From Planctomycetota bacterium (lineage in GTDB: Bacteria; Planctomycetota; Planctomycetia; Planctomycetales; Planctomycetaceae), in NCBI GenBank assembly GCA_027624335.1, contig JAQBWV010000002.1:18541-82540 (forward strand): a stretch of 64,000 bases of DNA, given 5' to 3'. Positions 10,017 through 54,464 of this stretch are shown piece after piece. The first letter of the stretch is position 1; the number at the start of each line of letters is the position of its first letter. Both the position numbers and the translations under genes were made by a program. A model generated the notes under the pieces. The model saw nothing but the letters and a program-made list of their open reading frames with translations, was not told the origin of the DNA and did no database searches.

Positions 10017-11348
10017 TTAGACAGTCTTAGAGACACCAGGAATCGCGATCGGATAGGCACCGTCGTCGCCTGGCGTGACCTTCGGAATCGTGTCCCACGT
10101 GTAGGATTCAGGCATGAGATCGATCTGAGAATTCAGAGCGTCTTCCCACTTGACCGGCTTACCACCGTAAACGGCCATGCGACCCATGATCGCGGTCAGA
10201 GTGCTGTTGGCACCGTACTCGCCTTCGTTGTAAGGGGTCCCGTTGCGGATCGCTGCGAACAGGTCGTCGTGCTCCGTCTGGTAAGGGTTGTTTTTCTTGC
10301 CGTCAAATCGCCAGCTATCACTTCCAGTGGCATCGATCCGGCCACCGAGATCGGCTGTACCTTTTGAACCGTGAGCGTGTTCGCTGACGCTATTCCAGCA
10401 GTTACGGACGTGTCGGCACTGGCTGAACATCTTTGTGCCGTCGTCGTAGGTGTATTCAACGGCGAAGTGGTCGAAAATTTCTCCGTACTTCTTGTCGGTA
10501 CGAACCTGTCGGCCGCCCATGCCATGACATTCAACGGGATGACTGTTGCCTTTAAGCCAGTTACACGCGTCGAGGTTGTGGATGTGCTGCTCACAAATGT
10601 GGTCGCCACACAGCCACGTGTAGTAGTACCAGTTGCGCATCTGGTATTCCATTTCGCCGCTGACCTGATCCCGGGTCCGGCGAGGATCCCAGACGCCGCC
10701 ACCGTTCCAGTAGCACCGCATTGTGATCACATCGCCAATCGCTCCGTCCTCAATGCGCTTCAGTGTTTCCAGATAGGTATTCTGATGATGCCGTTGCAGA
10801 CCGACGCCGATCTTGAGGTCTTTCTCTTTGGCAACCTTGACCGCTTCAAGAACCTTGCGGACGCCAGGCGCGTCAGTCGCAACAGGCTTCTCCATGAAGA
10901 CGTGCTTGCCAGCAGCTACAGCGGCTTCGACATGAATCGGACGAAAACCAGGAGGCGTTGCCAGAATGACCAGATCAACATCCGACGCCATCACCTTCTG
11001 GTACGCATCAAGACCAACGAACTTGTTTTCTTCAGCGACAGCAACTCGCTCTTCGGCCTGCTTACCCAAGGCTCCTTTGATCTGCTTCAGGCTGTTTTCC
11101 AGCTGATCCGGGAACGCGTCGGCCATGACGACGAGCTTGACTCGCCCAGCAGTGCTCAACGCTTGAGTTGCCGCACCTGTCCCACGTCCGCCACATCCGA
11201 TCAACGCAACCTTGATAACGTCGTCATTGCCGGCAAACGCTCCTGTTGGCAATGCAAGGCTGGCGAAAGCACTTGCTCCAGCGGCGGCAACGGTTGTTGA
11301 CTTGATGAAGTCACGACGTGAGCTGGCACTCGGTGTTTTGTCAGACAT
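10017..11348 (-). CDS. Gfo/Idh/MocA family oxidoreductase, Tat-exported
   Basis: 443 aa. Tat signal SSRRDFIKSTTVAAAGASAFA. Rossmann motif KVALIGCGGRGTGA. The remainder is typical of the planctomycete periplasmic Gfo/Idh/MocA family. Confidence 0.88.
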   Translation of the reverse strand: MSDKTPSASSRRDFIKSTTVAAAGASAFASLALPTGAFAGNDDVIKVALIGCGGRGTGAATQALSTAGRVKLVVMADAFPDQLENSLKQIKGALGKQAEERVAVAEENKFVGLDAYQKVMASDVDLVILATPPGFRPIHVEAAVAAGKHVFMEKPVATDAPGVRKVLEAVKVAKEKDLKIGVGLQRHHQNTYLETLKRIEDGAIGDVITMRCYWNGGGVWDPRRTRDQVSGEMEYQMRNWYYYTWLCGDHICEQHIHNLDACNWLKGNSHPVECHGMGGRQVRTDKKYGEIFDHFAVEYTYDDGTKMFSQCRHVRNCWNSVSEHAHGSKGTADLGGRIDATGSDSWRFDGKKNNPYQTEHDDLFAAIRNGTPYNEGEYGANSTLTAIMGRMAVYGGKPVKWEDALNSQIDLMPESYTWDTIPKVTPGDDGAYPIAIPGVSKTV

Positions 11349-11432
11349 GGTTTTCTCCAGAACCGGATTAACGCGGGAAAGTTAAAATATTGTTCAGGCA
11401 CATTCAGCGGCGATGCGTCGCCGAATGACACA

Positions 11433-12488
11433 CTAGCCGGCGCGTCCTTGCTTTGCGATTTCTTGCTCGGGATCGAGCTTAAGCTTCACTCGTTCTTCTG
11501 GTGTCGGTGGTTTCAGTGGGCGAACTATGCGGAAGCCAACGTGAAGTGCGTCCGTGTGATACCAGATGCTCTTTGGGATTTGCGGATCCTGAAATTTCCA
11601 TTCAGGATCGGAAGCGTAACGCGAGGCACTACGCAAACCGTCCGCATCGTCGTCCCATGATCCACCTCGCACGATTCGCGGATACATATCCGTCGGAACG
11701 TTGAGTGGCGATTTCGCGGCACCCCTTGATGCAATGTCGCTGTACCACTCAGGATCGTACCGGTCGAGAACCCATTCGGACACGTTCCCGTGCATGTCGT
11801 AGAGCCCCCACGGATTCGGCTTTTTCAAGCCAGTTTTGTGGTACTGCTCGTCGCTGTTGTCGTAATACCAGCCGAAATCACCGAGGTCGTCAGGGCTATC
11901 GCCAAATGAATAGGCGGTGGTCTTCCCTGCGCGGCACGCGTATTCCCACTCGGCTTCAGTCGGGAGGCGGTAAAAGTGCCCAGTCTTTTCGCTGAGCCAA
12001 CGGCAATACATTTTGGCGGCGTGCTGTGTCATGCAAATTGCTGGATAGCCGTCATGTCCCATGCCGAATGTCATGTCCGTGTACGGTGGAGTCGGGCGAG
12101 TCACTGCGTCAGCGACCGCGTCGAGCTTGGTTGGTTCTGCCCCGGCAATATTGCGTCGCTGGATGTCCAGGCGAAAGCTCCAGATGTCATACTCATCCCA
12201 GGTAACTTCGTACTTACCCATCCAGAACGGTTCGATCTTGACCTTCACCTGAGGGCCTTCGTCATCCTTGCGGTTGGCTTCCGTGGATGGACTGCCCAGC
12301 ATGAACTCGCCACCCGGAATTGGCACCATGTCGAACGACACATCCACTCCCGAGAGTGTTTCCACGTACGGCTTCATCGCTGGTTTTTCAGCAACACTAT
12401 CCGCCGCAGTCGACGGTTGCACCGATCCGAAGAACAGCACGACGAGCAGGCGGCATATCGAAGCTGCAAGGTTGGCATGAACTGTCAT
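11433..12488 (-). CDS. Formylglycine-generating-enzyme (SUMF1/FGE-sulfatase) domain protein, secreted
   Basis: 351 aa with an N-terminal signal. [61 protein letters not shown] and RGGSW are FGE-fold blocks. Confidence 0.85.
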
Positions 12489-16965: not shown

Positions 16966-19197
16966 TTACCGGAAGCGGAATGAGCGCTGGAAGAATCGGA
17001 GCAGACGTCGACCGGCGGATTGTGGTGACGTGTGAATCTTCGCCAGGCCGGTTCCTCGGACGCTCAATTTCGAAGTAGCCGGATCGAGTCGGACTCGCGC
17101 CTGGTAAGCCGTTGTCACGGGCCGCGGAATTCCGTCGGAATCCAGGCGTGTGGGAAATTCGTCGTGTTCGACCAGCTCTCGCGGAGCGACATCGAGATCG
17201 ATTTCTGCGATGTCGACAATCTGGCCGGTCAGGATTTCTCCCGGTACGTGATCGATCCGCAGTTCAACGCTCTGCCCATCAGTAATGAACTCGACATCGC
17301 TCTGGTCGATGGCGATGACCGCTTCGAAACGGTTGGAAGCAGCGATCTGGCAAAACTCGGTGCCGACGTCGAGCCACGTTCCCCTGTTCGACTCGTCAAG
17401 TGGAGTGCCACTCCAGCGGGGCAATTCGCCAGTGGACGAGAGTTGTTCGACCGGGCGTGGCCGTGCGGGGGGGTGAATGACAAGTCCGGCAGCGGGAGCT
17501 CGCAGCGTCAGTCGATCCCGGTCGGCGTGACGGTGTTGCAGTTCATCTTTCCTTTCCTGCAGTCGCTCCTGTGTTCCTGGAATGAGTGGGGCAACCTCGT
17601 CTCCGTCACGCAGGCGGCGGCTGGCCAGGTTGTCGAGCTGTTGTTGCAGTAGCGCCACTTCACCTTCGAGTCGGACGATCGTTCGTGCGAGCAGCGGATT
17701 CTCAAGCTGTGCAAGTTTCTGGCCCGCTTCGACGACAGTGTCTGGCGTGACAGCCGAGCACAATGTTCCGCTGTAGTGGACGTAGACGCTACGTGCGTTC
17801 TCGGGGCGGACCACGGCAGGAGCGCGAACTGAGAACGGTATCGGAATCAGCAGCCCCGCCGTGAGCAGCCCGAGCGTTAGAATTGTTCGCAGTCGGAATC
17901 GGGACCAGTTCACTGTTCGACTCCATAAGGGACTGCTCAGTAGGTTTATCAGCTGGGCCAATGGTGAGAGCAACATGCCGGCGACAGTCAGAATGGCCAT
18001 CACGATAACGAATGGCTCGAGACCATAAGGGGCGAGCAGGTGATGGACAAACCACAGAATTCCCCAGACGACGAGCACTCGGTACAGCACTGACGAGACG
18101 TACCACGCTGCCAGAAACAGTTTGCGGCGTTGAGGCAACAGCCGGCGACTGGCAAGTTCTGTGTCGAGGAACCAGATACTCAACCAGTTGCGGCACAGCG
18201 TCCCGGCCTGTTGACGAAGGTTCGGGATCTCGACCAGGTCGGCGAGGATGTAATATCCGTCATAACGCAGCAGCGGATTGCCGTTAAACAGTACCGTGCT
18301 CACCGAGCAGACGAAGACCACGTTCAGGCAGAGCGAGTTGAACGGTCCCGGAATGGAGAACCACCACAGAAACAGGCAGCCTGCAGAGAGAAGCAACTCG
18401 ACATAAATCCCCGCAGCACTGATGACGATTCGCTGCCAGCGGCTGGGCAGTATCCACGCGTCGGAAACATTGCAATACAGACAGGGAGTCATTACGAGCA
18501 GCATGACGCCCATTTCGTGACACTCGCCGCCAAAGTGGCGACATGAGACCGCATGGCCGAGTTCGTGCAGCACCTTGGTCGTCGCCAGCGTCAGAGCCAG
18601 CAACAGCAGATTCGACGCGCCGAAGAACTCGTGAAAGCGAGGAAGCCTCGCCTGCAGGGTATCAATACGAACTGCGGCAAGGAGCACGGCGGTAAGCATC
18701 AGGCCGACGCAAATCGTCACGCACCACGGCGCGAACAGAAAACGAGTGCGCGGCACCAGCCAGTTGAGAAAGCGATGCGGATCGAAACCTCGGAACCTGA
18801 TCGCCAGGATATTGGAAAGTTGTTTGAGATGCCGCTGGCCTCGCTCGGTACGAGTTCGAGAGACCAGGATGTGCGACTGCCCAGGCGAGTCGGAGATGAT
18901 CAAACCGGAACCGTGCAGCGTCGCAAGGAACGACTGAACCTGAGGCAGTGACAGTCGCTGTGGAGCGAACTTCAGCTCGAACTGGCGACGAATGTCTCGC
19001 AGCGAGACGGTCCCGTCGAGCATCATCAGCACGGCATGTTCTTCCGGGCTGAGTTGGTAGTAACGCAACGAAACGGGGTCTTTCACGTGCCAGTAGCGAC
19101 TGCCGCCGATGTGTTGTTCGTGACATAGCAGGTCCGCGCGCCGACGGAGCGGCAGTGTTCGAGTCTCTGCGGTTTGAGCAGGCGCCGCGACGGACAT
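16966..19197 (-). CDS. Polytopic M50 (site-2-protease-like) metallopeptidase core fused to a HlyD-type periplasmic adaptor domain
   Basis: 743 aa. The HExxH motif LHELGHAV is at aa 210-217 inside a TM segment. The second M50 motif is NGNPLLRYDGYY (aa 305-316), with many TM helices up to about aa 455. The C-terminal 270 aa show a lipoyl-like segment, a coiled coil (EGEVALLQQQLDNLASRRL..) and a beta-barrel (GQSVELRIDHVPGEILTGQIVDIA), as in HlyD/MFP adaptors. Confidence 0.8.
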   Translation of the reverse strand: MSVAAPAQTAETRTLPLRRRADLLCHEQHIGGSRYWHVKDPVSLRYYQLSPEEHAVLMMLDGTVSLRDIRRQFELKFAPQRLSLPQVQSFLATLHGSGLIISDSPGQSHILVSRTRTERGQRHLKQLSNILAIRFRGFDPHRFLNWLVPRTRFLFAPWCVTICVGLMLTAVLLAAVRIDTLQARLPRFHEFFGASNLLLLALTLATTKVLHELGHAVSCRHFGGECHEMGVMLLVMTPCLYCNVSDAWILPSRWQRIVISAAGIYVELLLSAGCLFLWWFSIPGPFNSLCLNVVFVCSVSTVLFNGNPLLRYDGYYILADLVEIPNLRQQAGTLCRNWLSIWFLDTELASRRLLPQRRKLFLAAWYVSSVLYRVLVVWGILWFVHHLLAPYGLEPFVIVMAILTVAGMLLSPLAQLINLLSSPLWSRTVNWSRFRLRTILTLGLLTAGLLIPIPFSVRAPAVVRPENARSVYVHYSGTLCSAVTPDTVVEAGQKLAQLENPLLARTIVRLEGEVALLQQQLDNLASRRLRDGDEVAPLIPGTQERLQERKDELQHRHADRDRLTLRAPAAGLVIHPPARPRPVEQLSSTGELPRWSGTPLDESNRGTWLDVGTEFCQIAASNRFEAVIAIDQSDVEFITDGQSVELRIDHVPGEILTGQIVDIAEIDLDVAPRELVEHDEFPTRLDSDGIPRPVTTAYQARVRLDPATSKLSVRGTGLAKIHTSPQSAGRRLLRFFQRSFRFR

Positions 19198-27619: not shown

Positions 27620-27784
27620 CGGTGTCGGGTTCCCGCGATTGGCTCACAGTACTTGTGACCTGACAAACCGTCACTTTGAGTTGCTGGTCGTTGCGCTTAC
27701 GGCACCAGCACGTAGCTGTCCTCGTAGTAAGCGGCTCGCGAGTGCTGTAGCATCGAGGTCTGCAACTCCTGATGTTGGCGACTC

Positions 27785-30700
27785 ATGCACTACTGTCCCG
27801 AATCCTGCCGCGAGTTTCTTCAAGAAACTCCGATTGGTGGCTCTGCAGCCGATGCCGGACGCGGATTTCACTATCGTTCCGCGCCGATCTACCTGCTGAC
27901 CGTCGCTGTTGGTGTCCTGTTTGCAGTCGATCTTGGTATCGGCTTTATGGAAGACACCGGCGTTTCGACGTGGAGCGCGTATCGCTCCATAGGCGGCTTC
28001 CGACTGGCTCTGCTGGCAGCGGTGCTCGGTGGTGCGAGGATCCTGTACCAGACGCTCGAGAATCTTTTTGACGGCAAAGTTGGAGCCGACCTCGCGCTCA
28101 CGATCGCGTGCCTGGCGGCGATCGTTCTCGGCGAACATTCGACTGCGGCGCTCGTTGTGTTTATTGCGCTGTGCGGTGAGAGCATCGAGGGCTACACCGT
28201 CGACCGCGCGCAACGAGCGATTCGTGGAGTATTCAATCTGTGTCCACCGACGGCTCGCGTCGTTTCAGGCGGTCGCGAAGAAGAAGTGGCCGCTGCGGAT
28301 GTCGCTGTCGGCCAGACGGTACTTGTTCGACCGGGTGAACGAATCCCGGTTGACGGAGTGGTACGGGACGGAGCTTCGACGGTTGATCAAAGCGCGCTGA
28401 CTGGCGAAAGCCTGCCCGTTGAAAAAGTCGTCGGTGACGAAGCATTCGCCGGAACGCTGAACCAGTTCGGTGCTCTGGAAATTGAAGCGACCCGGATTGC
28501 ATCAGACTCCACGGCTTCCCGGGTCGTTCAACTTGTCGCCGAAGCGACCGAGCGGAAGGCACCTCTGGAGCGCGCTGCGGATCGTTATGCGCGAATGTTC
28601 CTGCCGGTTGTCCTGGGGATCGCGACTCTCACGTTGATTGGCTGGCGGATTTCCACGGGTGAGTGGCGTCCCGGCTTTCTGCCTGCGCTAAGCGTGTTAG
28701 TCGTCGCCTGTCCGTGTCCTCTGATCCTGGCGACGCCGAGCGCCGTGATGGCAGCAATGGCCTGGCTCGCTCGTTCGGGAGTCGTCGTCAAAGGTTCCAT
28801 CGCGCTCGAAAGACTGGCTTCTGTTGACACGATCGCGTTCGACAAGACGGGAACGCTGACGCGCGGCGAGCTTCAAACCGGGACAGTCGTTTCGCTTTTG
28901 GATGACCTCGACGAGACCGAACTGTTGAGAACTGCGGCGATTGCCGAACGTCGCAGTGAGCACCCGATCGCTCGACTGGTCTGTCGTGAAGCTGCTGCAC
29001 GCGAGTGTGTTGTTCCGGGCGTGTACGATTTTGAAATACATCCGGGTTCTGGCGTGACGGCACAGGTCGCACGTGCCGACCTCGGAAGCTGGGCTGCCCA
29101 GTGCGACTCGCGTTCTGAAGGGCGATTGCGACTGACGGTCGGAAACCAGCGCTTGATCGAGAAGGTCGGGATTCCGGTTTCCGATGAGTTGACCGAGTTG
29201 CTGATCGATCTGGATTCACAGGGCGAGTCGTCTCTGATCATTGCCGTCGGCGAACGAGTGATTGGCGTGATCGGAGTCTGCGACAGCGTTCGCGATTCGG
29301 CACGCGACGTTATGCAGCAGCTGCGCCGTTGTGGAATTACCTCGTTCGCCATGTTGACAGGAGATCGTGAAGCGGCCGCACGGGAGTTGCAGAAGTCACT
29401 GCCGGAATTTGATTCAATCAAAGCCGGGTTGTTGCCGGTCGATAAGGCGGAGTGGATTCAGAACGCCACTTCTGCAGGCCGCAATGTGGCGATGGTCGGA
29501 GATGGAGTGAACGACGGTCCGGCACTGGCGACAGCGACCGTCGGGATTGCTCTCGGAGGAGTCGGCAGCGGAATCGCAGCGGACGCCGGAGATCTGATTC
29601 TAATGGGCGATCCGCTCAATCCGTTGCCCGGTCTGTTGCGGCTTTCTCGAAGACTGGTCCAGACGGTCCGGCAGAGCATCTACCTCTTTGCATTCGGCAT
29701 GAACGGTTGCGGCATGGTCCTCGGTGCGACGGGTGTGCTGTCGCCAGCAGCCGCTGCTGTGTTTCACGAGGCCGCGTCGCTGGCAGTCATGTTGAACGCG
29801 CTGCGGTTGCTATGGTTTGAACGCTGGGAGGAAACACCGCTGGGGCGGATGTCACAGTCGTTGACGGGAGTGGTAGAGTGGATTGTTGAGCTGCTCTCGC
29901 CGAGCCGCCTTGTTTTTCAGCTGATTGAAAATGCCAGCATGCTTGTCCGGCTCGGCTGTGCAGTTGCGGCGCTGCTGTGGTTTGCTTCCGGGTTGCGGCT
30001 CGTCGAAGAAGATCAGCAGGCTGTTGTGACGCGTTTTGGAAAGTTCGAGACGACGATGAGTTCGGGTCTGCACTGGCGCTGGCCGGCTCCCTTTGAAAGG
30101 GTACGCGTCGAACGTGTCGGCCAAATGCGAGTCGTGCAGATTGGTTTTCGCTCGACGGGTCACTCTCAGGATGAAGATACTTCCGAGCTGATCGAATGGA
30201 CCAGCGATCACGCCGGGCAGGAGAACGAAGTTCTGGCTGCCGAAACCATGACACTGACTGGCGACGAAGTTCCCGTTGAGCTGACGGCGGAAGTCGCCTA
30301 CCGGATTCGTGACCTGCAGATGTTTGTGTTTTCGTGCAGCGATCCGGAGTCGGTGATCCGATCGGTTGCGGAAAGCGCGATTCGCAAGGTCGTCGCGAGT
30401 GTCTCGCTGGACACCGTCATGACGGAATCAAGACCGACGGTTGAACAACGCGTGCTGGCTGATGTTGTTGGTGCTCTGGAACGTTATGGCCTTGGGGTCG
30501 AGGTTTCGGGGGTCAGCCTGCTGGACGTTCACCCTCCGCGGCCGGTGGTTACTTCGTATCGTCAGGTGGCGGACGCGATCGAACTTCACGAACAGCTCGT
30601 CAACGAGGCTGAGGCCTATTATGCGCAGACCGTGCTCAGTGCCGCTGGCGAGAAAGCGATTCGAAGGTTGAGCAGCTCTGTCGAATTTGAAGGACGTGCC

Positions 30701-31108
30701 CGTGAGTCGACGACGGGCGAGATGGCAGACTGGAGTCTGACCGATGAACTCTGGGCGGAGATCATTCACGAGAGTGATAAACAGCCGATGGAATTGTCCG
30801 GCGAGGCTGCGGCGAGAATTCACCGTGCTCAGGAGCAGCGAACCAGACGCGTCACAGCAGCGGTGGCATCCGTGGCCCGCTTCAACAGTCTGGTAACTCA
30901 GCACGTCAGATATCCGTTCCTCACCAGCACGACACTCTATTTCCAGGCGGTGTCTGATGCGTTGTCCGGTCGTTCGTTAACAATCATCGATCCGGCAGTA
31001 ACCGGAACACAGCGTCTACTTCTGATCGATCCCAACGACTTCGCGGCTCCGGCTTTTCTTCAGCCAATAATGACTTCCGATGAAGCTGCTGAAGAACCGC
31101 CTCCTTGA
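27785..31108 (+). CDS. P1B-type heavy-metal-translocating ATPase fused in frame to a C-terminal TM segment and an HflK-like SPFH (band 7) domain
   Basis: 1107 aa with no stop. ATPase motifs: TGES (aa 205-208), CPC (309-311), DKTGT (353-357), SEHP (391-394), [10 protein letters not shown] (572-581). The module ends ..LNALRLL at about aa 677. A hydrophobic segment follows at about aa 720-737. The SPFH block is [35 protein letters not shown]..., continuing through [12 protein letters not shown] and a coiled-coil tail. Confidence 0.85.
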
Positions 31109-31194
31109 GCTGAGTGGGCACCGCCCACCACGCGTGCTGTGATCTGGTGAGCATTGCCCACCCCGCATCAGTTGTCTGAAAACCCGGTCAATCC

Positions 31195-32394
31195 ATGAGT
31201 AACTCTGAAACGCCAAATCCTGATTCGGCTTCCCGGCCTGTGCCGCGGGCGGTTCTGCGGGTCGTGGCGGCAATCGCGGGAATCGGTCTCGCCGCCTGGC
31301 TGTCGACGTGCCTGGTGTTTGTCGATGAAACCGAAGTCGTTCTAATCGAGCGACTCGGGACCGTCGTCGCCGTGTTGGACCATGCGGATGACCGGGGGCT
31401 CAATGTCAAGCTGCCATGGCCGATCGGCATGGCGCGTCGATTCGATCGTCGGACACACCTCTTTGATCCACTGGGGCGAGAAGCCTTCACGCGGGATCGT
31501 AAGAACGTCACCGTCGATGCGTATGTTTGCTGGAAGATTGCCGACCCACAGGCGAATACAGGGCTTCTCGATCGTCCTGCAGTGCGATTTTTTCGGTCAC
31601 TGGGCACGACAGAAACGGCTCAGGCCCGACTGGAGACGCGCGTCCGCTCCGCGTTGGCGACCCGCATCGCGATGGTCGAACTTGGTGAGTTGTTGAGCGT
31701 TTCGGATCCGGAAAGTCAGCCGGTTGAATCGACGGAGATGTCGATGGACTCAATCTCGCGTCAGCTGCTGGACGATGTTCGCCGCCGGCCTGATGAGGAA
31801 TCGTCCGTGCTCGACCGCCTTGGGGTCGATATCGTTGACGTTCGTATCAAACGGATCAATTTTCCGCGAGGAAACCAACAGGCAGTCTTCGAGCGTATGA
31901 AAAGCGAACGGCAAAAAATCGCCGGTCGATATCGCAGTGCAGGACTTGCACAGAACGCCGTGATCCGCAGCCAGGCGGATCGACAGTACAGTGAGATCAT
32001 CTCCAGAGCCGAGGCCGAAGCTGAGCGAATTCGAGGGACGGCAGAGGCAGAGGCATTGGCCGTTCTGAACGAGGCCCACGCACGCGATCCCGAGTTCTAC
32101 CGCACTCTCCGCACGCTGGATTCGTACAAAACAATCATCAACGAGAAGACGACGCTGGTCCTTTCAGCGTCGAGCAGTCTGCTCAAACTGCTGGTTGAAG
32201 GAGTTCCGGACGCCGCGACGGTGCAGACGCCTGGTTCGATAAATAGCGGTGAAGATCCCGATCGCGCCGCCGAGACAGCGAAGGCAGACACTGGTCCTGG
32301 TAACGCCTCAGGCGAGACATCACCGGGAAGCGACACGCCAGCGTCGGATGACCCGCCTGCTGATCAGCCTTCAACGCCGGAGGCCATTGAATGA
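31195..32394 (+). CDS. SPFH/band-7 protein, HflC-like
   Basis: 399 aa with an N-terminal TM segment. VFVDETEVVLIERLG...GLNVKLPWPIGMARRFDRR, VDAYVCWKIADP, and the C-terminal DPEFYRTLRTLDSYKTII..TTLVLS are typical of HflC. Confidence 0.8.
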   Translation: MSNSETPNPDSASRPVPRAVLRVVAAIAGIGLAAWLSTCLVFVDETEVVLIERLGTVVAVLDHADDRGLNVKLPWPIGMARRFDRRTHLFDPLGREAFTRDRKNVTVDAYVCWKIADPQANTGLLDRPAVRFFRSLGTTETAQARLETRVRSALATRIAMVELGELLSVSDPESQPVESTEMSMDSISRQLLDDVRRRPDEESSVLDRLGVDIVDVRIKRINFPRGNQQAVFERMKSERQKIAGRYRSAGLAQNAVIRSQADRQYSEIISRAEAEAERIRGTAEAEALAVLNEAHARDPEFYRTLRTLDSYKTIINEKTTLVLSASSSLLKLLVEGVPDAATVQTPGSINSGEDPDRAAETAKADTGPGNASGETSPGSDTPASDDPPADQPSTPEAIE

Positions 32395-33497
32395 GCGGTT
32401 TTACCGACGCGCCGAAACCTCTGGACGACACTGTCCAGCGCCGCGAGGCGACCTCTGGCGGGACGTCGCCGTTCGATCCTGCCGCGCCGCAGCCGTCTCG
32501 CTGGCTGGTTCCGTGTGGCCTGGCTGTGGCCATCGCGATTGCCTGGGCGTGTTCGGGAATCTTCGTCGTCGGTGCCGATGAGGCAGCCGTCGTGCAAGTC
32601 TTTGGTCGAGCGGAAAGGACCGTTGATGGAGTGATCCTGCTGCGTAACAGTGGCTTGTACTTTCACCTGCCGTGGCCGATGACGCGGGTCGAACGTGTTC
32701 GTATGAACGAGGTGAGAACGGTCACTGTCGGAAGTTCAGAATTGGAGAATCTCGATGCAGCAGGGCAGTTTTTGCAGGCGATTGACCCGTCTCAGCAATC
32801 TCAGTTGCTCAGCGGCGACAAGAACATTCTGCATGTGCAGTTGAACGTGAGCTATCGGATTGCCAACGACCGGATAGACGACTGGCTGTTCGGATCGACG
32901 GTCGGTGAGCAGCAGTTGCAGTTGCTGGCGAGTTCGGTGCTGGCTGACGTTGTGCTGCGTAGCGGCGTCGACTTCGTTCATACGCTCGGGCATAACGAAA
33001 TTCGTCAGGCCGTGCTTGAGCGACTGGAAGAACTCGTCGAACAGAACTCGCTGGGTGTCGAAGTTGAGGACGTCACTCTCGCCAGTGTCGCGCCGCCTGT
33101 TCGAGTGAAGGCCGATTTCGTAGACGTTATGAACGCTCGCGCGGATCGCGAAACTTACGTCAATCGCGCGCGAGCTTACGAATCGCAACGTCTGTCAGAC
33201 GCGCAGGCCGAGTCTGCGAGACTGAAGAACGAAGCTCGATCGTACGCGCGTCGAAAAGTTGACCTGGGACGAGCAGAAGCCGAGAGCTTCAATCTCCTGA
33301 TCGATCAGCTGGTCGAGGCGTCGTCAAGTAGTTCGACATCCTACGCTGAGGTGAGGCAACTCGCTCTGCGGCGTCAGTTTATCGACACGCTGGAAGACGT
33401 CTTTCGCAAAGTCGATGCAAAAGTGCTGCTGGATTCCGGACAGCAGGTCGATATCACTTTGCATCGAAACCCGAACGGCCAGAATCCGGGCAGGTGA
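32391..33497 (+). CDS. SPFH/band-7 protein, HflK-like
   Basis: 368 aa. The ATG overlaps the upstream stop (ATGA at 32391..32394). It has a TM segment, then VVGADEAAVVQVFGR...GLYFHLPWPMTRVERV, VEDVTLASVAPP and a coiled-coil tail. Confidence 0.8.
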   Translation: MSGFTDAPKPLDDTVQRREATSGGTSPFDPAAPQPSRWLVPCGLAVAIAIAWACSGIFVVGADEAAVVQVFGRAERTVDGVILLRNSGLYFHLPWPMTRVERVRMNEVRTVTVGSSELENLDAAGQFLQAIDPSQQSQLLSGDKNILHVQLNVSYRIANDRIDDWLFGSTVGEQQLQLLASSVLADVVLRSGVDFVHTLGHNEIRQAVLERLEELVEQNSLGVEVEDVTLASVAPPVRVKADFVDVMNARADRETYVNRARAYESQRLSDAQAESARLKNEARSYARRKVDLGRAEAESFNLLIDQLVEASSSSSTSYAEVRQLALRRQFIDTLEDVFRKVDAKVLLDSGQQVDITLHRNPNGQNPGR

Positions 33498-50770: not shown

Positions 50771-50988
50771 CAAACAGACCCTGGCACATCGAACCAGAGA
50801 AAATACAACGGACACGACGGACGACATCCTCGTCAGATACAATTTGCAGGATCGTCATCTAGTCCGTGCGAATCTCCGGATACGGGATGCTCGCTGTAAT
50901 TGTATAAACCAACGATCCAGCGCATGTTTCGGGAGTCTGCTGGGCGTTGATGTTGCATCGATGATGCCGAGCGGATTTGCTGCAGGAC

Positions 50989-53900
50989 ATGAGGAATTCA
51001 GTGATTAAATCAAAACGATGCTCACCGAGGACAGGCCGCCGGTACAGATGGCTGGCCAGCTTACTCCTGTGTTTGTTTCCAGGGATTTCATCGGTAAGTA
51101 TTGCTCAGCCGAGCAACCCACCACATCCGACATCGAGCACGCCAGCGTCGCCGGTGCGTGCAGAAACGCTACCGACGCTTGATCAGATCGAAGCGGCGAG
51201 AAAAGAAGCCGAGGCCAGTACCACGCTCGACGACTCGACGAAGAAAGCGATCGCCGATCTGGCGATCAAGTCGGTTGAGTCGATTCGTTCGGCTGCTCGA
51301 AGTCGCGGGACGCTTCAGGCATTACAGCAGGACGCTGCAAATGCTGCCGACGACGTGACACAAGTCCTGGAAGAATTGAAGCGACCGATCGGGCAGTTTT
51401 TCCCATCAGTCGCCCCCGGCGCGACGCCCGAAGAAGTTCAGAGTGAAGTCACACGCGCGGAAGCGGAACTGGTCGAAGCCCGCAAGCGATTGGCGGGGAT
51501 GGAAGAAGTTCTTGGCCAGCGCGCCGCAAGGCGGCCGAAGTTGCCTGACCTGATCACTCAGTCTCAGAAGGAACTTGCTGAATTTGAGAAACAGTTAGCG
51601 GTCAGTCGTCCGGAAGGCGAAGCGGCCGAGCTGACCAGAGCACGTGAAGCGTTCGTAATGCTACATCGTGAAGAACTCAGGTCATCAATAGCGTTACTGG
51701 GACAGGAAGGGCCGCTCTACGACGCCACGGCTCGGCTGTTGACTGTGCGGCGTGACCTTGCTCAACGAACGGTCACGGATGCTGAACGTCGCCTTGAGGA
51801 GTGGCAGAAGGCCCGGTCTGAAGCACTGAAAGAGCAGGCACGGAAACAGGCGCAGGAAGCGCTGGAGACATTAAAGACTGCGCATCCGGAAGTCGGAGAA
51901 ATCGCCCGCCGGAATCAGGAATTGACCGAGATCAATCAGGACATCGTTGCTCAGCTTGAGACCGCGACTCGCGATCGTGATGAAATTCGCAAACGCGTCG
52001 AGCAGCTTGATTCCGAATTCACCGATCTGCAGACTCGCGCCGAGGCTGCTCATTTCACCGAAGCGATCGGCCATCTGCTCCGCAGTCACTACAGTCGCCT
52101 GCCGGGAGTTGCTCGTTACCAGGATGGCATTGCAGAACGGGATGGTGTCATTACCGAGCTGAATCTTGATCTGATTCAGTACGAACGTGAACGCCGCAAT
52201 CTCGTCGATCTGGAGAATGCTACAAATGAAAGCCTGAAGCAGATTCGCGTGGGAACCGGCACTGAAGCGGGCGAAATTCGCCGTCAGGTTGAAGAGCTTC
52301 TGTCGGCACAGAGCGTGAATTTGAGCACGCTGACGCTAAATGCCGCAAGCTGTTTGAACATGCTGGTGTCGCTGGACAGCGCTGAGCGGAATTTAATTGA
52401 GCAGGTTCATCTTCAACACGATTACATCGCCGAGCATGTCCTGTGGGTGCAGTCGGCAACCGAGATGTACCGTACTCCTGCAAGTGCCTGGCTGACGTCG
52501 GCAAGGCAACTCATGCATCCAGAAAGCTGGTATTCCGTGGGCCGTCTCCTGCGGATCGACATCGGACTGCACTCAGTCACGTGGCTGGCGGGGGCGATCA
52601 GCTGGATTCTGCTCATCACCATCCGCGGACGCTGGCGACGGGCATTGATAGCAATTGGCATGCAAGCTCGAAAAAGCACTGTGACCGAGTTTCGGCCAAC
52701 GGCGAGTGCGGCAGTCCTTACGGCGGCGATCGCATTGCCCTGGCCGGTCATGTTTCTGCTGCTGGGTTGGAGGCTGGATGTAATTCGCGGAGGGACTGGT
52801 TCATTCACTCCGCCGCGCCAGCGCTGTCGACGGTTGGTCTACTGTATCTGGTACTTGAAGTTCTGAGGCAGACGTTTCGGCAGTATGGTTTGGCGGAGTC
52901 TCACTTCGGCTGGTCAGAGGATGTTGTAAAGGACGTGCGTCGCGCCCTGCGCAGGTCGATTCTGGCCGGTCTGCCATTAGCGCTGGTCGTCTCATTCTGC
53001 CGTGCTTCCGGCGACATCGTGCTGCACGCTTCGATTGGTCGACTGGCTTTCGTTCTGGCCTGCCTGCAGCATTCGGCACTGTTTTATCTGCTGGTGCGTC
53101 CCAGCGGTTCATTGATGCTGGAACTCCTTTCGCAATCGACTCACCCGCTGGCGTACCGGTTCCATTCGGTATGGGTCGCCATCACGGTTGGTGGTCCGCT
53201 GGCTCTCGGAATCGCAGCATTCGGCGGCTACTACTACACAACTCTGGAACTTGCCTGGCGAACGATTGCAACACTGGGTATCGCCGTCGGTTTGTTGCTG
53301 CTGCGTTCGGTTCTGTATCGCTGGCTGCTGGTGAGTTATCGTGCGCTGGCGATTCGCAAGAACCGTCAACGCCGGGAAGCCATGCAGAGGGAGTCTGCCG
53401 AGAAGGGCGAAGTCTCGGACGTGATCGAAGCCGAACGAGTGCCAGAGATACAGCTCTCCACGCTGAACGACCAGACTCAGCGACTGTTTCGGCTGGTCAG
53501 CAGTGTCGCGCTGCTGACGGGAATCTGGATCATCTGGGGAGACGTGCTGCCCGCGCTCGCCGTATTCAAACGCCTTGAGCTATGGGATCTCTACACTCCG
53601 GGAGTCGGCATTACTGGAGTCGTGACGCTGGCCGATCTGGCAATCGCTTTGCTGGTACTGGTCGTGACCGTTGCTGCCAGTCGTAACCTGCCGGGTCTGC
53701 TGGAGATCGGCGTCCTGCAGAGATTACCTCTCGATCCGGGTGCTCGCTACGCCGCGACGACGATCATACGTTATCTGATTGTCGTCGCTGGAGTCGTTAC
53801 CGCGTTCAGTCTGATTGGAGTTGACTGGGGCAGTGTGCAGTGGCTGGTGGCTGCCATGTCGGTTGGCCTTGGCTTCGGGTTGCAGGAGATCTTTGCGAAT

Positions 53901-54464
53901 TTTGTCTCTGGTATGATTCTGCTCTTCGAACGTCCGATCCGCGTCGGCGACACTGTGACCGTAAACGACGTGACGGGCACAGTGAGTCGAATTCGCATCA
54001 GAGCGACAACAATTGTTGACTGGAATAATAAAGAACTGGTGGTTCCTAATCGCGATTTTGTGACAGGCAATCTGGTTAACTGGACGCTGTCCAATTCACA
54101 TTTGCGAATCATCATTACGGTTGGCATCGCCTATGGTTCAGATACTGAACTGGCCACGCAGTTGCTGTACCAGGTAGCTCGGGAGTGTCCTGACGTTCTC
54201 AAGGAACCAGAACCGATTGTCGTGTTCACTTTGTTCGGAGACAGTACGTTGAACTTTGATCTGCGTTGCTTCGTGCCGACGCCGCAGGTCTATCGCCTTA
54301 TTTCACATGAGCTGAATATGGCCATTGACAAGACGTTTCGAGCACATGGTGTTGAAATAGCGTTCCCGCAACGGGATCTGCATCTGCGATCAATCGATGC
54401 CCGCCTGCTGAAATCCCTGGGCCGTGATCGTGATCCTGTCGACTCCGCAAGGCGTGAAGACTGA
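50989..54464 (+). pseudogene. MscK/KefA-type mechanosensitive channel with a broken reading frame (apparent 1-nt deletion near 52786..52796)
   Basis: ORF 50977..52866 carries the signal peptide, a long periplasmic coiled coil and the first TM helices. ORF 52443..54464, in the -1 frame, carries the remaining TM helices and the MscS core VGLGFGLQEIFANFVSGMILLFERPIRVGDTV..GTVSRIRIRATTIVDWNNKELVVPN. Sensible sequence switches from ..LLGWRLDVIRG to DWFIHSAAPALSTVGLL.. around the run GGAGGG. A sequencing error cannot be excluded. Confidence 0.7.

Follow-up and report, generated by a model that had tools for sequence, protein, structure and literature searches.

A P1B-type metal ATPase fused to an HflK paralogue, in a conserved cassette with HflC and a second HflK

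The 64,000-nucleotide stretch analysed here, called the window below (contig JAQBWV010000002.1 of assembly GCA_027624335.1, positions 18,541 to 82,540 of the forward strand), belongs to a Planctomycetota bacterium and contains a cassette of three genes whose products all carry an SPFH (band-7) domain. The first gene joins a heavy-metal ATPase of the P1B type to a paralogue of HflK; an HflC-like gene follows after 86 nucleotides, and its stop codon overlaps the start codon of a further HflK-like gene in the sequence ATGA. This layout had been described in an initial annotation made from the letters alone, and the coordinates agree with it. Below, the HflK module of the fusion is denoted K' and the free HflK-like protein K''. 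The three listed open reading frames (ORFs) and the parts of the first are as follows, with the evidence for each in brackets:

27785–31108, plus strand: fusion gene, 1107 amino acids, comprising a P1B-type ATPase, a linker, a ninth transmembrane (TM) helix and a full-length HflK paralogue, K' (ORF, Pfam, related loci).
27785–29815, plus strand: ATPase module, residues 1–677, with helices MA, MB and M1–M6 and the A, P and N domains, without an HMA domain (TIGR01525, match in the PDB, AlphaFold2 (AF2) model).
29816–29929, plus strand: predicted cytoplasmic linker, residues 678–715, with WFERW..., the invariant pair S705-P706 and two predicted helices (conservation, AF2).
29930–29995, plus strand: ninth TM helix, residues 716–737, counterpart of the HflK membrane anchor (hydropathy, AF2, alignment with E. 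coli HflK).
29996–30616, plus strand: predicted periplasmic SPFH/Band_7 domain of K', residues 738–944 (Pfam, hflK model, Foldseek).
30149–30271, plus strand: K'-specific loop within the SPFH domain, residues 789–829, with W805 and H809 in E-W-x-S-x-H (conservation).
30530–30532, plus strand: K'-specific H916, in the DVH916PP motif (motif at 30530–30538; conservation).
30617–31105, plus strand: coiled-coil wall and C-terminal region of K', residues 945–1107 (phmmer domains 2 and 3 against HflK, AF2 helices).
31195–32394, plus strand: HflC-like gene, 399 amino acids, one N-terminal TM helix (TIGR01932, alignment with E. coli HflC).
32391–33497, plus strand: free HflK-like gene, K'', 368 amino acids, one N-terminal TM helix (TIGR01933, alignment with E. 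coli HflK, own clade).

The 1107-residue product matches three Pfam domains in one chain: E1-E2_ATPase at residues 152–330 (1.7e-54), Hydrolase at 347–584 (5.9e-23) and Band_7 at 740–944 (9.5e-26). Together with the ORF coordinates, this bears out the unbroken reading frame with an ATPase part and an SPFH part, and the profile combination (E1-E2_ATPase, HAD hydrolase and Band_7), that the initial annotation had anticipated. The P1B hallmarks that it had assigned to residues 1 to about 677 were likewise all located: TGES at 206–209, CPC at 309–311, DKTGT at 353–357, SEHP at 391–394, the GDGxNDxP hinge at 572–581 and LNALRLL at 670–676. Stretches of HflK type follow at 744–778 (QQAVVTRFG...) and 911–921.

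A chain of this composition might be an artefact, produced in this metagenome-assembled genome (MAG) by an assembly chimera, by a missed stop or frameshift, or by the merging of neighbouring genes, and it was compared with related loci from other assemblies. Scanning one genome for each species gave 65 loci, every one labelled Planctomycetota; taxon labels are the titles of the records, and some of those on MAGs are implausible (e.g., 'Candidatus Kuenenia stuttgartiensis' on loci resembling other Planctomycetota loci). The ATPase and SPFH halves share a continuous frame in 51 of the 53 loci containing both, which come from independent assemblies, and the fusion is present in the closed genome of cultured Symmachiella dynata (CP036270.1) as well as in a draft assembly of another cultured organism, Tautonia sociabilis (Isosphaeraceae; GCA_003977685.1). 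At the junction the G + C content is even, and residues of the junction and linker are conserved. On the other side, the halves are split or in different frames in the two remaining loci (L051 and L053) and in a long-read contig (L072). The comparative data refute the artefact, which we consider extremely improbable.

The architecture is also widespread. An identical protein (P0001) is on record, from a Planctomycetota MAG; among the matches listed, the best 120 clusters formed at 90% identity all have the three Pfam domains, and at 50% identity there are at least 62 full-length fused cluster representatives, reaching down to 34% identity. When a distant member served as the query, Acidobacteriota (Bryobacterales, Acidobacteriaceae) and Isosphaeraceae were found to have this architecture too. 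A restriction to Planctomycetota would be too narrow, given that the cassette occurs in Acidobacteriota. The search for ATPase and Band_7 in one chain that the annotation had recommended returned a widespread fusion, for which no characterisation was found. Automatic names given to these proteins are inconsistent and include 'FtsH protease activity modulator HflK', 'cation-translocating P-type ATPase family protein', 'Cu+-exporting ATPase' and 'P-type Cu+ transporter'. One 1331-residue fusion copy (P0089) stands in a eukaryotic proteome set (eukprot g8285.t1) and is most likely a bacterial contamination.

The first part of the fusion is, to judge by its residues, a catalytically intact P1B-type ATPase with eight TM helices and without an N-terminal metal-binding domain. 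It scores 527.2 bits against the NCBIfam model for heavy-metal P-type ATPases (TIGR01525; cutoff 346.25). The AF2 model contains an eight-helix pump core (residues 33–57, 74–95, 101–115, 118–150, 260–291, 295–330, 615–648 and 654–674), and among PDB entries the P1B-4 pump sCoaT matches best (7QBZ; 6.5e-100 over residues 44–679), with CopA and ZntA close behind. The metal site predicted from sequence consists of C309-P-C311 in M4, N640 in M5 and H661-E662-x-x-S665 in M6, with E135 in the exit path. Residues with described functional roles in sCoaT (S325/C327, H657/E658 and E120; PMC8880997), and its GG kink, have these counterparts:

sCoaT S325 and C327 (M4): C309 and C311.
sCoaT H657 and E658 (M6): H661 and E662.
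sCoaT E120 (M2, exit path): E135.
sCoaT GG kink in MB: G82-G83.

No substitution of a catalytic or metal-site residue occurs in 40 sequences, and among the 62 representatives at 50% identity these residues are at least 95% conserved; TGES, C309-P-C311, DKTGT, N640, H661 and E135 are invariant or nearly so in the family, and G82-G83 is invariant. Pfam finds no HMA domain anywhere in the 1107-residue chain. The 'CPESC' stretch at the N-terminus was considered as a metal-binding motif and rejected: although MHYxPES is conserved, relatives have other residues in place of Cys4 and Cys8.

Assignment to a P1B subclass was attempted from the motifs in M4 and M6. All fused relatives have CPC in M4, and M6 reads H661-E-A-A-S665 here and HQxxS in many relatives. 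The described combinations are SPC with HEGxT for P1B-4, CPC, K and DxG for P1B-2, and CPC with HN for the 'P1B-6-like' CtpC (PMC13460109). The pump resembles sCoaT and the P1B-4 group in its eight TM helices, the lack of a classical metal-binding domain, the GG kink of MB, the H-E of M6 and the exit-path glutamate of M2 (PDB 7QBZ; PMC8880997), but CPC replaces the SPC that defines P1B-4 (CoaT, CzcP and CtpD type), and HEAAS or HQxxS stands in place of HEGxT. P1B-2 (ZntA, CadA) shares the CPC but has DxG where the present pump has HEAAS, and DxG pumps form a separate, distant group; TIGR01512 is matched above its cutoff (437.8), though that model is broad. A P1B-6-like identity fails on M6, which is H-E or H-Q and not H-N, CtpC having been compared by its described motifs. 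As far as sequence motifs go, the pair of CPC in M4 and H-E/Q-x-x-S in M6 fits none of the defined subclasses. When 121 ATPase domains are placed in a neighbour-joining (NJ) tree, the fused pumps group together in what is essentially a single assemblage, in which the apparently unfused sequences are mostly fragments; the nearest unfused pumps are of the CPC/HN and CPC/HQ types, and pumps with SPC/HEGST or CPC/DxG lie farther away.

P1B pumps transport metal from the cytoplasm to the periplasm, so that release at the periplasmic side is expected here. The pump probably carries a divalent or soft transition metal of the Zn/Co/Cd/Ni/Fe class, the exact metal not being readable from the sequence.

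A few divergent fusions (P0195 and its relatives P0384–P0387) have a pump with VCPC and HEVAT motifs that is nearer to unfused, HMA-bearing pumps of the Cd/Zn type than to the main fused clade. This group is oddly placed in the NJ tree, has unfused, HMA-bearing relatives at 45% identity, and its relatives keep Band_7 partner genes; it may represent a second, independent fusion event.

The second part of the fusion is, by sequence and model, a complete HflK paralogue, with a TM anchor of predicted N-in orientation, a predicted periplasmic SPFH domain, a coiled-coil wall and an HflK-like fold. Unfused relatives of the pump end shortly past LRLL; here the chain continues into the linker, for which the AF2 model predicts helices at 685–704 and 706–715. 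The additional hydrophobic helix, placed at about residues 720–737 in the initial annotation, was found at 716–737 by hydropathy and at 717–734 in both AF2 models. The annotation's HflK-type domain at about 740–950 is equally recognisable, with Band_7 at 740–944 and E. coli HflK chains as the best matches in sequence and fold. Residues 738–957 score 158.9 bits on the hflK model (TIGR01933; cutoff 159.4), and a comparison of residues 701–1107 with PDB sequences returned only E. coli HflK (2.6e-24) and a weak QmcA match, the HflK alignment taking in the membrane anchor helix. A separate AF2 model of residues 701–1107 (predicted local distance difference test score, pLDDT, 73) gave HflK chains as its top five Foldseek matches (E = 2e-19), followed by HflC, QmcA, stomatin, prohibitin, erlin and flotillin. 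In Foldseek the HflK likeness is seen only with this separate model, as the full-length one retrieves P-type ATPases only. Confidence of the AF2 models is moderate (pLDDT 70–73), and the K' loop has low pLDDT.

The eight-helix pump core has both termini in the cytoplasm (PMC8880997). With one extra helix behind it, helix counting would place the SPFH part of K' in the periplasm, as in HflK, and the corresponding proposal of the annotation holds by this count of eight plus one. Relative to E. coli HflK, the coiled-coil wall of K' contains an insert of about 50 residues (954–1003). Within the SPFH domain, W805, H809 and H916 are invariant in 36 sequences from both phyla and present in 59, 57 and 58 of the 62 representatives, respectively; none of the three is found in K'', HflC or E. 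coli HflK. These residues may form a periplasmic contact with the pump exit, or a metal site.

The product of the second gene is identified from its sequence as HflC. It scores 171.8 bits on the hflC model (TIGR01932; cutoff 134.4) and aligns to residues 17–324 of the 334 of E. coli HflC, and its orthologues score 149–217 bits, above the cutoff in all lineages tested. K'' aligns to E. coli HflK and scores 141.3 bits on TIGR01933, below the cutoff of 159.4; its orthologues reach 216–217 bits in two Acidobacteriota cassettes (above) and 140–141 bits in the window and Tautonia (below). Band_7 is the sole domain that Pfam and NCBIfam find in the two partner proteins, and no NfeD is present at the locus.

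The order of the three genes is conserved well beyond the window. Among the 40 loci with at least 2.6 kb of sequence downstream, on which these counts rest, HflC directly follows the fusion in 37, and HflC and then HflK follow in 35. Fusion, HflC and HflK stand in this order, often with overlaps of stop and start codons, in S. dynata, in two Acidobacteriota contigs, in T. sociabilis and in a divergent Planctomycetota contig (L074). Flanking genes are conserved among close relatives only, so that the order of the cassette is constant while its surroundings vary. An NJ tree calculated from the SPFH parts separates three clades, namely K' of the fusions, free K'' and HflC, each with members from Planctomycetaceae, Isosphaeraceae and Acidobacteriota; since each clade spans both phyla, the triplication is older than the spread of the cassette. 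We conclude from these sequences that the three SPFH proteins are three ancient orthologous groups travelling with the pump in Planctomycetota and Acidobacteriota. The initial claim of three SPFH paralogues in one unit with a metal pump is thereby extended from one contig to 35 of 40 loci with both partners, and to cassettes kept in Acidobacteriota and Isosphaeraceae.

Several loci depart from this order. In the divergent Planctomycetota locus L073, just one Band_7 gene follows the fusion, and a HEPN/nucleotidyltransferase toxin-antitoxin pair (11233–12097) is inserted between the two. In the Acidobacteriota-like long-read contig L072 (4397–10096), the fusion is split exactly at the junction of ATPase and SPFH parts, with a gap of 8 nucleotides, and a Y1 transposase is inserted; a 582-residue protein with two Band_7 domains, possibly an HflC–HflK fusion, comes next. 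Acidobacteriota cassettes are followed by an ORF of 150–156 amino acids (L067, 13026–13496; L068, 12885–13337; L072, 10103–10567), which could be a fourth component and has a weak, below-cutoff match to the Rv0361 membrane-protein family. A truncated pump at L070/L071, with an IS110 element near one of its two copies, illustrates a natural loss of the scaffold.

Whether the SPFH proteins serve the pump or a protease was considered in the light of HflK and HflC of E. coli, which act with FtsH. In that organism hflKC and ftsH are genomically unlinked, so the lack of ftsH near the cassette says little. HflK is moreover the subunit that contacts FtsH (PMC13220708). The initial annotation had noted that ftsH is missing nearby and had suggested that a cage may surround the pump instead of the protease. 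Its first part stands: a six-frame scan for Walker-A and HEAGH motifs, with Pfam FtsH domains sought in the large ORFs, found no ftsH in the 64-kb window. The second part does not follow from this absence.

In the principal rival explanation, K', HflC and K'' would all be modulators of an FtsH encoded elsewhere, and the fusion would expose the pump to FtsH proteolysis or shield it from it, or would link FtsH activity to metal status. The scores at or near the cutoffs of the equivalog models 'FtsH protease activity modulator HflK' and 'protease modulator HflC' are what such a role predicts, and NCBI gives several of the fusions exactly these names. The company kept by the genes speaks against it: in the loci examined they accompany the pump and never ftsH, which is absent within 8–10 kb of the cassette in nine lineages inspected. 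There are also two HflK paralogues, one of them with pump-specific periplasmic signature residues, and the cassette has the look of an accessory module, not of a housekeeping pair. We regard FtsH-coupled quality control as distinctly less probable than a role centred on the pump.

Such a role is the one we lean towards, with rather guarded confidence: the locus would encode a scaffold-tethered metal exporter, in which a scaffold of HflK/C type is built on a covalently joined pump. HflK and HflC co-assemble obligately into an alternating, periplasm-facing 24-mer with 12 HflK subunits (PMC13220708). Taken together with P1B export into the periplasm, this suggests that K', HflC and K'' probably form an HflK/C-type dome or arc, with the pumps on the cytoplasmic side of those anchor helices that occupy HflK positions. 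Such an assembly would keep the pump stable, clustered and confined to a limited area of the membrane, just where metal is released, and the W805/H809/H916 loop of K' may be a point of periplasmic contact or of metal handling. One ring is unlikely to have room for twelve pump headpieces, by our own size estimate rather than a computation, and K'' may therefore set the ratio of pump to scaffold; free K'' would do so by filling HflK positions without a pump.

The Trp/His loop, being invariant and unique to K', also admits an explanation without any cage, namely that the SPFH domain of K' is a periplasmic metal sensor, an autoinhibitor or an exit-site chaperone for its own pump, with HflC and K'' as auxiliaries; that the fusion lacks adjacent partners in some genomes would fit this as well. 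K' nevertheless has every element of HflK, among them the coiled-coil wall and the C-terminal region through which HflK oligomerises, HflC comes next in 37 of the 40 loci, and cassettes occur in both phyla. HflK proteins are not known to function as monomers. With all parts for oligomerisation in place and the partners conserved, we rank this sensor or regulatory role below the scaffold-tethered exporter and hold it to be quite unlikely.

A more far-reaching version of the scaffold, which we consider unlikely, is a closed periplasm-facing dome formed by the three SPFH paralogues and actively loaded with metal by its own tethered pumps, i.e., a nanometre-scale compartment. It could serve sequestration, the controlled metallation of an enclosed client or a metal-buffered chamber, and the Trp/His loop of K' would line the lumen as the surface that receives the metal. 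In a second form of this reading, the pump's E1/E2 cycle would be transmitted mechanically through M6, the linker and the ninth TM helix, opening and closing the SPFH ring.

Several points weigh against the scaffold-tethered exporter. The assembly of K', HflC and K'', its stoichiometry and the position of the pump relative to the ring are inferred, and the equivalog-level HflK and HflC scores are equally compatible with an FtsH-linked role. The fusion occurs without partners in three loci (L028, L043 and L034) and with HflC only in two others (L005 and L013), so that K'', and perhaps HflC, would not be strictly required in cis. A close relative of the Acidobacteriota fusions (64% identity; L070/L071, 8001–10309) ends just past the pump, with neither SPFH part nor SPFH neighbours, and in this lineage, therefore, the pump can exist alone. 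In addition, both NJ trees are without support values, the operon is deduced from spacing and synteny only, and the pLDDT of the AF2 models is moderate, with low values in the K' loop.

Regulation of the cassette was sought in the DNA upstream of the fusion gene, which contains one further feature:

27656–27780, plus strand: two conserved upstream blocks, candidate promoter or operator (alignment of 8 relatives).

Block 1, TGACCTGNCAAACYGTYA, lies at 27656–27673 and has the outer inverted ends TGAC/GTCA; block 2, CTGTAGCATCGARGTYTGC...CCTGAYGTTGG, lies at about 27745–27780. In an alignment of 8 relatives both are better conserved than the surrounding non-coding DNA, and block 1 occurs once in the window against 0.04 occurrences expected by chance. 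On these sequence grounds we propose the blocks as candidate promoter or operator elements. No sigma-70 promoter-like site was found, terminator-like matches are at chance level with none between the genes, and no Rfam match to a riboswitch or regulatory RNA appears upstream of or within the cassette at E ≤ 1. No conserved metal-sensor regulator stands beside the cassette, whose flanks vary among lineages.

Two other features of the window deserve mention. An MscK/KefA-like mechanosensitive channel is encoded by two overlapping ORFs (50977–52866 and 52443–54464, plus strand), the first with MscS_porin and the start of MscS_TM and the second with the remainder of MscS_TM and the channel domains; this looks like a frameshift, either in a pseudogene or through an assembly error. 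A 743-residue ORF on the minus strand (16966–19197) has weak matches to Peptidase_M50 and to the HlyD family in one chain, an unusual pairing.

Among characterised systems, HflK/HflC–FtsH of E. coli (PDB 7VHP, 7WI3, 9CZ2 and 9PAW) is the closest in form. The HflK and HflC types correspond by profile and sequence and, for the fused module, by fold; each protein has one N-terminal anchor helix followed by a periplasmic SPFH domain and coiled coil, and hflK and hflC are adjacent. Here, however, one HflK has a whole P1B pump at its cytoplasmic N-terminus, each HflC is accompanied by two HflK paralogues, and K' has the inserted Trp/His loop and the coiled-coil insert that E. coli HflK lacks.

The closest functional analogue is found in the 'effluxosomes' of M. 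tuberculosis, where the scaffolds PacL1–3 accompany CtpC, CtpG and CtpV and a membrane scaffold likewise shares an operon with a P1B exporter (PMC9374683, PMC13460109). P1B pumps, CtpC with its CPC and HN motifs among them, depend on PacL proteins to be stable, clustered and active (PMC9374683, PMC13460109), and a role of this kind is what we propose for the present scaffold. PacL proteins are small DUF1490 proteins, neither SPFH nor fused, whose cytoplasmic Glu/Ala repeats bind the N-terminal metal-binding domain of the pump. In contrast, the scaffold proposed here is periplasmic, of HflK/C type and covalently attached to the C-terminus of a pump that has no N-terminal metal-binding domain, and the two systems resemble each other in function alone.

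A precedent for transporters enclosed by an SPFH assembly is the stomatin dome around AQP1 and UT-B (PMC12407830). Stomatin, the prohibitin/m-AAA complex and erlin complexes all form SPFH oligomers that hold specific membrane proteins in a delimited patch, but their clients are recruited non-covalently, whereas in the fusion the client is itself one scaffold subunit. The operons of SPFH and NfeD proteins (QmcA-YbbJ, PDB 8Z5G; PMC2636767) also pair an SPFH gene with a dedicated membrane partner in a conserved arrangement; in the present cassette that partner is a P-type pump and is fused, and NfeD is missing.

A 2009 survey of prokaryotic SPFH operons does not refer to ATPases at all (0 occurrences; PMC2636767). 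Our full-text literature search found no description of a P-type ATPase–SPFH fusion, in agreement, within the searchable literature, with the initial annotation, which knew of none. Each module was known before, as was the idea that SPFH assemblies form around membrane proteins; what is new is their fusion, widespread yet uncharacterised.

How SPFH cages (HflK/C, prohibitins, stomatin, flotillins and erlins) affect the proteins that they enclose, and how they choose their clients, is an open question, and in the present system a covalent bond fixes which protein is the client. The fusion has been retained in two phyla at identities as low as about 34%, and the pump-less HflK paralogue beside it would provide a built-in control of stoichiometry. 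This deep conservation, the pump-less paralogue and the availability of cultured strains (Symmachiella dynata and Tautonia sociabilis) make the question directly testable. For annotation, the finding concerns a set of proteins that are at present inconsistently named, and it flags an unclassified P1B subgroup defined by CPC together with H-E/Q-x-x-S. For metal homeostasis, a scaffold-tethered exporter would carry the 'effluxosome' principle beyond Actinobacteria, with an unrelated scaffold.

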